A DNA stretch of 42,209 nucleotides from Octopus sinensis. Taxonomy: Eukaryota. The DNA lies in assembly GCF_006345805.1 (NCBI RefSeq), contig NW_021834890.1:1-42209 (forward strand), written 5' to 3'. The translations under genes and the position numbers were made by a program. Shown here piece after piece: positions 402-32,493 of this stretch (positions are counted from its first letter, which is position 1; each line of letters opens with the position of its first letter). Below the pieces are notes generated by a model that had not been told where the DNA came from, searched no databases, and saw only the letters and a program-made list of their open reading frames with translations.

Positions 402-611
402 AGTTAATCTAAACAAGAAAGCACAAAAAAACAACGACGCGAAGACGTGGAACAAATATAGTATTGTTGGACGCTCAGGAAGGAAGGGAAGAAGGAGGGT
501 TTAACGTTTCGAGCGGAGCTCTTCGTCAGAAACATAGGAGAAGGAAAGATCCAGAAAAGGGAAGACAGAGAAAAAAATCGCCAACGGTACACACGCGGTC
601 ACATTTTGAAT
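402..611 (-). mobile_element. Penelope-like element (PLE) terminal-repeat relic
   Basis: Contains a minimal hammerhead (499-533) of the type known from PLE pseudo-LTRs and abuts TA-rich microsatellite. Boundaries approximate. Confidence 0.6.
499..533 (-). ncRNA. Minimal type I hammerhead ribozyme (C3-G8 core)
   Basis: Minus strand reads GUUU-CUGACGA-A-GAGC-UCC-GCUC-GAAA-C-GUU-AAAC: stem I GUUU/AAAC, stem II GAGC/GCUC, loopless palindromic stem III (ACGU), GUU cleavage triplet. Confidence 0.8.
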
Positions 612-1025
612 GGATATATATAAAATATATATATGAATATATATATATAAAATATTCTATAATTATATACATAATATAATTAGGGATCAGCTAAGTGCCT
701 TGCCACGTACTGAATTAGAAATGTCTTTTCAACTACCATAAAAATCTCAGAGACAATAACATACTTTTTTACCTACATAAAAAAAGTGTGTTATTGTCTC
801 AGAAATGTGTGTGTGTGTGTGTGTGTGTGTAAACAGCTCTGGTCATTTCTATGATCATGCGTCCTTACAATTCATTCACACGTACATACATCCATAGACA
901 CAAACACGCATACATACACACACACGCATACGGATGGGATGTTACACTAACTAAAACATATTGTTATAGAAATAAGCGAAACAAAATGTAAAAAAAAATT
1001 TTTAAACGAGGTACTTTTTGAAAAG

Positions 1026-1125
1026 TCACCTGAGGAGAAGCAAGTGCACCTAAAAGGCATGACAATCAATTGTACAGTATTTCACTTATCAGGTATGGGT
1101 GCAGGAGTCGAAACGATTGTAGTGG
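1026..1125 (+). ncRNA. Type I hammerhead-like motif with extended stem II (PLE-like relic)
   Basis: UCAC-CUGAGGA-GA…UGCACC…GGUGCA…UC-GAAA-C-GAUU-GUA-GUGG. Stem I CAC/GUG, GUA triplet; AATAAA follows at 1131-1136. Confidence 0.55.
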
Positions 1126-1227
1126 ATCTGAATAAAGAATTTCATCAATTCCAGTTTCTGTCTCTCATCCTTTTACTATACATTGTGTAAAATTAAGCAT
1201 AATATATATATATATATATATATATAT

Positions 1228-1563
1228 TTCGTTTTTGGTTTGCAGGATTCTTTATGTGAGTTCGTGTGTTGAAGCATATTCTGTTGTGTCTGGGGAGAGT
1301 CATTCTCTTTTTGTGCCTTATAATGTAATACACTCACTGGTAAAATTTCCACTTATTTCTTATTTTTATTTTCTAAAATTTTCGTTGCGTCTTGCAACCT
1401 TTTCAATAGTCTTGACTCTTGACTCTTTCAAGACTCTTGAAAAGGTTGCAAGATGCAACGAAAATTTTAGGAAAATAAAAATAAGAAATAAGTGGAAATT
1501 TTACCAGTGAGTGTATTACATTATAAGGCACAAAAAGAGAATGACTCTCCCCAGACACAACAG
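1228..1563. mobile_element. PLE-like inverted terminal-repeat insertion in a (TA)n tract (~135-bp arm foldback)
   Basis: Arms 1281-1415 and 1428-1563 are near-perfect reverse complements with a 12-nt spacer. One arm is extended to 1228. Both sides are flanked by (TA)n, and each arm carries a hammerhead variant. Confidence 0.75.
1373..1409 (-). ncRNA. Minimal hammerhead, U3-A8 core variant
   Basis: CUA-UUGAAAA-G-GUUGC-AAGAC-GCAAC-GAAA-A-UUU-UAG. The mirror copy on + at 1434-1470 has a stem I mismatch. Confidence 0.6.
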
Positions 1564-1850
1564 TATATATATATATGTATTACAACTATTAGCGGTTTGA
1601 GTTTGGCTGCTCTTTCTAGTGAGTCGAATGTCCTATTATGGCCATTCCTTATATTTTTGAATATATATATATATATATATATATATATACACACACACAC
1701 ACATATATATATATATATACAACACATACACACGTGTACACATTCATACACAAACACAAATGCACAGTCACACAATACACACACAGAGACAGGAGTGTAA
1801 ACAGTGGTGTATATATTGCATAAGGAAGTAAATGAAAGTTGGGAGTGAAT

Positions 1851-2057
1851 GGGGGTGGGGAATCAAAAGCAATGTGTGGGCGGGTGGGTGGGTGGGTGGG
1901 TGGGTGGGGGGTGAAGAGTGGCTTAAACTGGAATAACGGTGAGAATGTGAATGAGCGAATGAATGAATAGCAGACAGGTAAATGAGTGAATGAGAGGGTA
2001 TGGGAATATTTGGATGAATGAGCGAGTGAACTGGGGTGGGGTGGGGGTGGGGGGTGG
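1851..2057 (+). repeat. G-rich tracts ((GGGT)n), G-quadruplex-compatible
   Basis: GGGCGGGTGGGTGGGTGGGTGGGTGGGTGGGGGG near 1878-1911 and GGGGTGGGGTGGGGGTGGGGGG near 2033-2054. Confidence 0.6.
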
Positions 2058-2094
2058 AAGAAATTAATGAATGAGAGAGAGAGAATGAGAGAGT

Positions 2095-29900: not shown

Positions 29901-30264
29901 ATTGAATCCATATATTTCCAGAACACCTTACTGTCAGGGTCGGTTGCTATGAGCTGCTCAAATTCAAGCACTGGCCCCTTTTTTTTTCTTCTTTTGATGA
30001 TTTTCTGTAGCAAAAAAAAAAAAAAAAGGGAGGCATTGTTTTAGATGGAGAATGTTAATTACTAAATACAGGTAAACTTAAAATACAGGTTGTTAGCATT
30101 TAATGATGTTTGATTGGATTAGTAAACAATGACCAATCTTTGACCACTAATTACTGGTTAAGTCCAGTTCTCAACATGTCCCTCCCCTGTTGCCTTGACG
30201 ATCTAATTATCTATTTACAGCCGTCCAATTGTAACTTCATTTACGGGAATTGTTTCTCAATAAA

Positions 30265-30465
30265 TCATCATCATCATCGTTTAACGTCCGCTTTCCATGC
30301 TAGCATGGGTTGGACGATATTTGACTGAGGGTTGGCGAGCCAGATGGCTGCACCAGGCTCCAATCTTGATCTGACAGAGTTTCTACAGCTGGATGCCCTT
30401 CCTAACGCCAACCACTCTGAGAGTGTAGTGGGTGCTTTTTACGTGCCACCGGCACGGGGGCCAGA
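30265..30465 (-). mobile_element. RTE LINE 3' end
   Basis: (CAT)n plus the shared 3' UTR. Confidence 0.8.
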
Positions 30466-30699
30466 TAGAAATGACAGACAGAAACCTAAATGGTTATAAC
30501 CGTTCCACCCTTTTAACACCAAACCATCTCACACTGTCTCCCATTCTCTGATAACAATCCTTTCCCCATATTGTTTCAAATTTTGGTACAAGGCCAGCAA
30601 TTCCTGGGAGAGGATAAGTCAATTACTTATACTGTTGACTCTGAAAGTAAAACAAGGCAAAGTTATCTCCATATTTGTGCCTTCTGCCTCGAATTTGTT

Positions 30700-31640
30700 G
30701 CCTCATAACTTCCAGAAAAATGGATATTTTGGAATGAAATTTTCTACAAATATGCTTCAGATGGTGTAGAATTTCATTATATTAGAATATGTGGTGAAAG
30801 AATTTTTCCGAGGGTTGAGTGGGAAGTTTCGGAAAATTCACACCAGAGAGCTTTCTTTGCACATAACTTTCAAGAAAGTGGGTAATTTTTAATGAAATTT
30901 TTTTTAAATACCTTTCAGAGTGTGTAGGTTAGAATTGTTTTGGAATGTGAGGTGAGGAAATAAATTTGGTAAGTTCTTACACATACGTGTGAAGGCGTAT
31001 GGCTCAGTGGTTAGAGCGTCGAGCTTACGATCGTGAGGTTGTGAGCTCGAATCCCGGACCGGGCTGCGTGTTGTGTTCTTGAGCAAGGCACTTTATTCCA
31101 TGTTGCTCCAGTTCACTCAGCTGTAGAAATGAGTTGCGACGTCACTGGTGCCAAGCTGTATCGACCTTTGTCTTTCCCTTGGATAACACTGGTGGCGTGG
31201 AGAGGGGAGGCTGGTATGCATGGGCGACTGCTGGTCTTCCATAAACAACCTTGCCCGGACTTGTGCCTCGGAGGGTAACTTTCTAGGTGCAATCCCATGG
31301 TCCTTCATGACCGAAGGGGGTCTTTACCTTTTACATAGCAAGACATCATATCTATCTACAAAATGAAATTTCGAAAAATTGTGATGTATGCCAGTATGTG
31401 TGTGTGTGTGTGTGTGTGTGTGTGAGCTCAGTATTTTTTTTTTTGGGTGTTTTTTTTGTGTTTTTCACAACAAAATCTGATATAATTGTAATTTACACAT
31501 TCTGAAAAGAATTTGTAGAAACTTTTGTTAAAAAATACACCTTTTTCTGAAAGTCGTTAAGAAATAAAGTCAACTCGTGTGAATTTTCCAAAACTTTTCT
31601 TCCTACACATAAAAAATTTTTTTCAGGACAAATTTCAATA
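30700..31640. mobile_element. Old long-TIR (foldback/MITE-like) DNA element interrupted by a SINE
   Basis: ~30795-30930 is a degenerate reverse complement of ~31490-31628 (GGAAAATTCACAC / GTGTGAATTTTCC; TTTCAGAGTGTGTA / TACACATTCTGAAA). Confidence 0.5.
30988..31333 (+). mobile_element. tRNA-derived SINE with CORE-like segment (family E)
   Basis: TGGCTCAGTGGTTAGAGCG (A box) … GAGCTCGAATCCC (B box), GTGTTCTTGAGCAAGGCACTTTATT, tail CTTTACCTTTTA. Confidence 0.8.
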
Positions 31641-31654
31641 CAATCAGAATATAC

Positions 31655-32098
31655 GGATCTTTTCGGTTTGAACGGCAGTTTTTAAAAAAATAATTTCCAC
31701 GTAACTAAACACTTTTAAACTTCGTATACTGATAGAATGTGTTTATAAAACATTTTTTTCTCTTGGCTTTATTGAGAGAATTCTATAGTTTGTAAGATAT
31801 TTGTTGTTGTTTTTTCTTCAATTTCTGCAATTTCAACCAACCAATGACGTCCATTGAGGTAAAAAAAAAAAATTCTGTGCCGTATGAATATGTCCCTCGT
31901 TTAAGAAACAGATTGGGTTTATTTACATTTCTGAAGAAAAAAAAGACACCCTTCCTCCCACCCCTATCCCTAACCCTAACTGTAACCCTAACCCTAAAAC
32001 AGATTGAAATGCAATAGATCGATACTAGGGTCATAATTACGGGGGACAATTTCATATGACACCGCTAGAAAAAACTGCCGTTCAAACCGAAAAGATTC
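31655..32098. mobile_element. MITE with ~29-bp TIRs and internal (CCCTAA)n
   Basis: GGATCTTTTCGGTTTGAACGGCAGTTTTT (31655-31683) versus AAAAACTGCCGTTCAAACCGAAAAGATTC (32070-32098). Confidence 0.85.
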
Positions 32099-32264
32099 TA
32101 ATTTTTTTACATAAAGTAAATAAAGTAAATAAAGCACAAAAATACAAAGTAAGGATCGACTAGTCACGACTAGCTAGCGCGGATACGCAAGTGCGCGCTC
32201 CGGGGACACTGTTCTCAAGTAGTATCCCAAAAATCGCTGGTTAATTATTTTTAATTATAAAGTA

Positions 32265-32493
32265 GTTCGATTCACTTCAACATTTAAGTTTAATTTGTCA
32301 AAATATTTTCGGCGCTAAAATCCGCGACCTGTTCACTGACAAAAATCCGAGGTCGCGGATTTTAGCGACGAAAATATTTTGACAAATTAAACTTAAATGT
32401 TGAAGTGAATCGAACGGCTTTTGTGTGTTTCTTAAATGGCTTATAAACACCTTCCACGCTGCAATTGTTTTCGTTCCAGCACACGATCTCAGA
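32265..32493. mobile_element. PLE-like inverted terminal-repeat insertion with 13-bp TSD
   Basis: 66-bp arms at 32265-32330 and 32350-32415, with the right arm extended to 32493. TAATTATAAAGTA is duplicated at 32252-32264 and 32494-32506. Confidence 0.8.
32295..32342 (-). ncRNA. Minimal hammerhead, G3-C8 core variant
   Basis: UUGUCA-GUGAACA-G-GUCGC-GGAUUUUA-GCGCC-GAAA-A-UA-UUU-UGACAA: 6-bp stem I and palindromic stem III AAUAUU. The other arm shows the fully paired stem II (GUCGC/GCGAC). Confidence 0.65.

Follow-up and report, generated by a model that had tools for sequence, protein, structure and literature searches.

What must a hammerhead ribozyme keep in its core, and what may it change, while the element that carries it continues to spread? 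The question is raised by a 42,209-nucleotide (nt) stretch of Octopus sinensis DNA (RefSeq assembly GCF_006345805.1, contig NW_021834890.1; hereafter the window), which belongs to an animal genome of 2.72 Gb and is rich in repeats. A first-pass annotation made from the letters alone had recognised five hammerheads in it, called S1 to S5 below, and had inferred several families of Penelope-like elements (PLEs) or retrozyme-like elements with selected variant cores. We find that the five motifs are real, that each lies at the constant 3' end of a repeat family whose dispersed copies are truncated at the 5' end, and that the state of the pair between core positions 3 and 8 is fixed within each family and is always Watson-Crick. 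The copies in the window are most likely inert relics. By analogy with characterised PLE ribozymes, their parent elements probably carry out slow cutting, dependent on dimers and on protein, at hammerheads with a palindromic stem III.

Reading of the sequence confirms all five motifs at the positions and with the cores first annotated. Four are minimal hammerheads on the reverse strand: S1 at 499-533 (-), of type I, with core CUGACGA, a C3-G8 pair, an extra A before stem II and the palindrome ACGU in stem III (predicted cut between 503 and 502, -); S3 at 1373-1409 (-), with core UUGAAAA, U3-A8, an extra G and palindrome AAUU (between 1376 and 1375, -); S4 at 24151-24195 (-), with core UUGAUAA, U3-A8 and palindrome ACAUGU (between 24155 and 24154, -); and S5 at 32295-32342 (-), with core GUGAACA, its G3 at 32336 and C8 at 32331, and palindrome AAUAUU (between 32301 and 32300, -). 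The fifth, S2, is a type I hammerhead at 1026-1125 (+) with core CUGAGGA, C3-G8 and a long stem II, and is predicted to be cut between 1121 and 1122 (+). All five possess the GAAA strand, an NUH site and stems I and II, the latter with G10.1-C11.1, and all retain G5, A6, G12, A14, A15.1-U16.1 and a base other than G at position 17. A sixth core, UUGAAAA at 1437-1443, lies within an inverted partner of S3 (1434-1470, +), which has a stem I mismatch beside the core. The palindromic stem III that had been ascribed to four motifs describes the window copies of S1, S3, S4 and S5 correctly and falls short for the families, all five of which are palindromic; S2 is so in its commonest family state, and its window copy is broken by a single CpG-type change (that family column reads C in 24 and T in 16 of 42 copies).

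The motifs are far more frequent in the window than chance provides. A minimal type I descriptor, requiring a stem I of at least 3 pairs, a stem II of at least 4 pairs, a palindromic stem III and an NUH site but leaving positions 3 and 8 free (16 states), matched the window 4 times, at S1, S3, S4 and S5 and nowhere else, always with a Watson-Crick 3-8 pair. The shuffled-sequence check proposed with the first-pass annotation gave 2 matches in 100 local dinucleotide shuffles (0.02 per shuffle), 1 of them (0.01 per shuffle) paired at 3-8. S2 is missed by this descriptor; a second one, built for a long stem II, gave 1 match in the window versus 1 in 200 shuffles. Both descriptors were composed after the sites were known, so the ratios of real to shuffled matches are somewhat flattered. 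An Rfam scan of the window returned 115 matches up to E 10, none to a hammerhead family, the two canonical cores included. To this extent the suspicion that consensus searches overlook such ribozymes was justified; however, the U3-A8 state in PLEs had already been published (PMC4209133).

First-look searches gave 2094 candidates for S1, 221 for S2, 811 for S3, 1469 for S4 and 308 for S5, of which 40 per family were scored, and the resulting samples of copies are biased towards sequences resembling those in the window. Family copies end together about 130-180 nt past the motif start and are ragged at the 5' end. Many lie within (TA)n, and many are accompanied by an inverted partner, as are S3 and S5 in the window; inverted partners, (TA)n surroundings and 5' truncation have been described for PLE insertions (PMC8557442). 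The S1 copy (396-649, -) is a 5'-truncated pseudo-long terminal repeat (pseudo-LTR), 87% identical to a full-length copy. A further piece of the S1 family, from 5' of the hammerhead region, stands at 21662-21782 (+), 85% identical and without the motif. The S2 copy (943-1168, +) is the 3' end of a repeat that is likely an old PLE, with 70-82% identity between copies. The S3 pseudo-LTR (1202-1419, -), also 5'-truncated, is 93% identical to a copy behind a frame encoding reverse transcriptase and endonuclease (RT-EN), and its inverted partner copy occupies 1428-1568 (+). S4 is represented by the 3' untranslated end of its PLE family (24080-24505, -), and S5 by a 5'-truncated pseudo-LTR (32259-32349, -) whose inverted partner copy (32350-32499, +) is truncated at stem II and lacks the core. 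Within the window no Penelope-like coding sequence was found at E below 0.001, and none of the five sites shows a tandem array in the style of non-LTR retrozymes, whose units of 150-450 nt each carry a canonical type I hammerhead, the window copies being single or inverted.

Coding masters were found elsewhere for four of the families, and from their sequences we read S1, S3, S4 and S5 as endonuclease-bearing (EN+) PLEs. Of 6 extended S4 loci, 4 (L232-L235) have a frame with RT and GIY-YIG domains immediately before the motif; this frame is unbroken over 883 amino acids in L234, and a further locus, L053, matches Pfam GIY-YIG above cut-off. The S3 motif lies 120-730 bases 3' of an RT-EN frame in 17 of the 20 loci recovered by the S3 RT. 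Of 7 S5 loci, 4 show homology without a break from the hammerhead back 1.4-1.8 kb into the GIY-YIG/RT frame, and L205 has the RT YxDD motif; a homologue search with the S5 protein found 46 relatives. The S1 motif precedes an RT-EN frame in 11 of 20 loci and follows it in 8, and three loci (L329, L330, L332) show the order pseudo-LTR, frame, pseudo-LTR; the Pfam RVT_1 match of the S1 frame is weak and below cut-off. Four S1 loci (L285, L289, L306, L329) are short units with internal deletions, in which tandem hammerheads are spaced by 280-580 bases, a layout like that of retrozymes. YxDD and GIY-YIG/CCHH motifs are readable in single frames of all four families, the RT followed by a C-terminal endonuclease. 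The linker between the two is of CX4CxxC type in S1, S3, S4 and the additional family F7 and CxxC in S5, as read by motif rather than from a clade tree; a CX2-5CxxC zinc-finger-like linker marks the Neptune or Nematis clades of PLEs (PMC8557442).

S2 is a PLE only likely, and the assignment of several PLE families made at first is sustained for the other four. In 6 of 18 loci S2 sequence has decayed endonuclease-like remnants of GIY-YIG type next to it, and in a related family, F8, a hammerhead with a comparably long stem II follows a GIY-YIG frame. Two frames that had looked like masters were rejected: that of L277, considered for S2, belongs to F7, and the RT-EN frame of L154, considered for S5, is part of a chimera with family F6, the S5 motif occurring only in the query locus among 30 loci with the frame.

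All five family consensi keep the 3-8 pair. C3-G8 is present in 75 of 86 S1 copies and 32 of 42 S2 copies, U3-A8 in 71 of 74 S3 copies and in all 33 of S4, and G3-C8 in 64 of 69 S5 copies, so that each of the three Watson-Crick states first annotated is fixed in its family; the remaining copies of S1, S2, S3 and S5 have single 3-8 mismatches or gaps. A looser scan allowing all 16 states gave 236 matches in 1.98 Mb of DNA, picked around five of the clusters it yielded. All 12 clusters of at least two copies have a paired majority state (6 C-G, 5 U-A, 1 G-C and no A-U), 7 of them not targeted by the search, while the 33 singletons are mostly unpaired at 3-8 and resemble noise. These differences between families are the basis on which we infer that the 3-8 pair is maintained by selection on master copies.

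Relatedness among the elements sharpens the comparison. The proteins of S5, S3 and F7 are 48-57% identical (F7 to S3, 57%), and the corresponding 3-8 states are G-C, U-A and C-G. In a protein tree of 19 rows S3 and F7 join with support of 100/98 and S5 joins these with 90/86, below the starred level, while S4, with U-A, sits on a distant branch, so that U-A was probably gained or lost more than once. The five ribozymes had been called unrelated at first sight; several of their families are indeed unrelated or distantly related, but S5 and S3 group together with F7. Between S3 and S5 a U-A pair of stem II is exchanged for C-G with pairing kept, and the frequent variants of S5 either sit in loop II or leave stem II paired. 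Among the rows listed from four contig sets, two of them large (coded organisms A and C) and two smaller, the seven core places of S5 are invariant and loop II is freely variable. One divergent S5 copy (L411:6291) retains G3-C8, has G at position 7 and carries a stem II pair in which both bases have been replaced and now agree with S3; the two changes fall at CpG sites.

For the parent elements we favour cutting in the following form. In a tandem transcript two motifs would pair through their palindromic stems III and then be cut after the NUH; cutting would be slow, would require the tandem partner and probably would be helped by element protein. Tandem motifs on the same strand, 280-580 nt apart, do occur in S1 loci. 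PLE minimal hammerheads with palindromic stem III have low activity, seen only as dimers (PMC4209133; review PMC6765202), and in the anole Poseidon element PAc the cut requires the element protein while uncut RNA is the main template for insertion (PMC11167929). Cutting would then serve, as a sideline, to trim or circularise tandem transcripts and would not supply the template, because inserted copies hold an uncut motif.

A number of observations weigh against cutting under selection. Few copies have their 5' end within 2 nt of the cut (2 of 84 in S5, 2 of 93 in S3, 0 of 93 in S1 and 0 of 46 in S4, S2 having been dropped from the counts since microsatellite matches swamped it); as inserted copies rarely start at the cut, uncut RNA was presumably what was copied. 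Stem I of S3 has only 3 base pairs, and the folding-energy z-scores of the five motifs (-1.25, +1.10, -1.80, -0.12 and -1.21 for S1 to S5) carry no signal, the minimum-energy structure of S2 being different from the proposed hammerhead. Selected variant cores had been claimed from the outset; the differences between families speak for them, but no compensatory 3-8 change within a family was found among the sampled copies, and since young families are uniform by descent, conservation within them is no evidence of selection. The 1.98 Mb scan started from chosen DNA, as noted, and when applied to 400 kb of unselected DNA the strict descriptor matched 6 times, versus 1.0 per shuffle, 2 of the matches coming from these families and 4 being doubtful; by this comparison the window is richer in motifs than average DNA. 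S2 is tied only to its endonuclease remnants, no RT having been found, and 23 of 24 S2 loci extended 2-7.5 kb upstream had no adjacent coding remnant.

To these are added core changes away from the 3-8 pair, carried by families that spread well. The claim that every departure from the consensus changes positions 3 and 8 together is true of the five window copies and fails in the families. S1 has C at position 4 (U4C) in 56 of 86 copies and U in 29; decay of a CpG was considered for this split and rejected, other CpG sites showing 1-5 T in 86 copies versus 29 at position 4. F7 (L314-L328), a very young family with copies 99-100% alike, shows A9C in each of the 15 copies retrieved, and its stem III has 2 pairs and is not palindromic. 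F6 (L172-L200), likewise young and with a protein 61% identical to that of S4, combines the core UUGAUAA and a weak stem I with GCAA in place of GAAA (A13C) in all 5 copies inspected.

Such changes, which have become fixed or prevalent in successfully spreading families, fit the alternative that survives best. On this view the elements keep the motif for its hammerhead-shaped fold, which would tell the element protein to bind, dimerise or stop; cutting would be marginal, the 3-8 pair would be conserved as a need of the fold, and catalytic tuning would be left to drift. Consistent with it, 5' ends gather upstream of the motif rather than at the cut, 32 of 84 in S5 at -65 to -51 and 39 of 93 in S3 at -45 to -36, counted from the cut, and in the anole element hammerhead mutants leave insertion in vitro unaffected and no reads end at the cut site (PMC11167929). 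However, these pile-ups come from a biased sample; G5, A6, G12, A14, A15.1-U16.1 and the non-G at 17, kept in all five motifs, are a catalytic signature; related motifs cut in vitro (PMC4209133, PMC11167929); and the U4C variant, known from nature, remains able to support a viroid (PMC3088659). We regard this alternative as unlikely, and hold to slow cutting in the parent elements. The S5 pile-up (for example at L014:1601) falls at an AG 15 bases before the hammerhead, with a branch-point-like CTAAC and a pyrimidine run upstream, which recalls the intron end at helix I of Drosophila Penelope (PMC4209133); none of 66 copies showed a spliced junction upstream of the S5 motif. S3 and S1 have preferred 5' ends of their own.

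One further proposal we advance only tentatively: that S5 is an unreported natural G3-C8 hammerhead of a successful retrotransposon, in a clade that ran through G-C, U-A and C-G while tolerating changes at positions 4, 9 and 13, and that the fold rather than fast cutting is what selection sees, possibly as a protein-loading or copying-stop signal. If true, such a signal would explain truncated copies that start just upstream of the motif.

Decay is a quite improbable account of the variant cores, which would then be relics in lineages where function was lost and the paired 3-8 states arose by chance. It would suit the truncated, non-coding copies of the window, the core changes outside 3-8 and the spread of Naiad elements without canonical hammerheads (PMC8557442), but all 12 clusters are paired at 3-8 although only 4 of 16 states pair, the passage from C-G to G-C takes two transversions, and stems and palindromes vary between families yet remain paired. 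It is very improbable that some of the motifs represent non-autonomous units of retrozyme type instead of full elements that were truncated. In favour of this, S1 includes short, internally deleted units whose two motifs are separated by about 530-580 nt (L289, L306, L285), no RT was found for S2, and animal retrozymes have been traced to PLE pseudo-LTRs in a 2026 preprint (10.64898/2026.07.22.740005). Against it, coding masters of four families are present in this genome, the window copies form no tandem arrays, and the motifs reported for retrozymes are canonical type I hammerheads (PMC7229834).

Much of this has precedent. The minimal hammerheads of PLEs (Cervera and de la Pena 2014, PMC4209133) resemble ours in being of type I with a short stem I and palindromic stem III, in their terminal-repeat location, in the extra base after position 9 (here in S1, S3 and most of S5), in G10.1-C11.1, in inverted partner copies, in the many families per genome and in the U3-A8 variant, of which about 1,300 matches are reported from Schistosoma mansoni and 3 of the 56 rows of Fig. 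S3 are examples. Minimal PLE hammerheads and their U3-A8 form are thus already known, as are small PLE-associated variants with short stem III and dimer cleavage (Lunse, Weinberg and Breaker 2017, PMC5785218, as given in the review PMC6765202). In contrast, G3-C8 appears in none of the 56 rows of Fig. S3, whose descriptors fixed the core, and the families with U4C, A9C or A13C and the very long stem II of S2 likewise set the present genome apart; the 40 species listed there include no cephalopod.

The anole PAc hammerhead (Frangieh et al. 2024, PMC11167929) shares the location in PLE terminal repeats but has its frame start inside the motif, whereas in S1 the frame begins several hundred bases downstream. 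There the engineered C3G/G8C double mutant partly restores cleavage. G3-C8, a laboratory mutant in PAc, is the natural state of multi-copy S5; engineered G3-C8 also figures in PMC8495972 and PMC3884650. Natural U3-A8 covariation and a viroid U4C are documented among natural core variants (Perreault et al. 2011, PMC3088659), but the accessible part of that survey names no natural G3-C8, and its examples are mostly prokaryotic, phage or viroid. In the literature searched, whose coverage was incomplete and left repeat databases outside, no natural G3-C8 hammerhead family was found, and S5 is probably a new natural variant.

PLEs keep a slow hammerhead even though insertion in vitro can do without it (PMC11167929) and Naiads lack it (PMC8557442). 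Related elements of the present genome form a natural series with G-C, U-A and C-G pairs, together with U4C, A9C and A13C, in families of differing age, which permits cutting to be tested against fold. Searches with CUGANGA fixed, like the Rfam models, miss a large share of such ribozymes, 6 of 12 families here not being C3-G8. The basic phenomenon is known, and the gain is incremental.

The remainder of the window holds other repeats and a gene-like frame. At 32704-33645 (+) lies an intronless frame of 313 amino acids with CARD and caspase (Peptidase_C14) domains, covered by contigs from sequencing runs guessed to be RNA; the inverted S5 pair stands 200-450 bases upstream of its start. Tandem arrays occupy 2083-6047 (unit 27-29 bases), 10551-11832 (184 bases), 18533-19003 (91 bases), 20132-21725 (102 bases) and 35270-36658 (31-33 bases). 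A repeat of about 200 bases, resembling a short interspersed element (SINE) and present in many copies on both strands, occurs at 8206-8452, 13765-13999, 19681-19890, 23892-24080, 26159-26374, 40054-40277 and 41356-41574.

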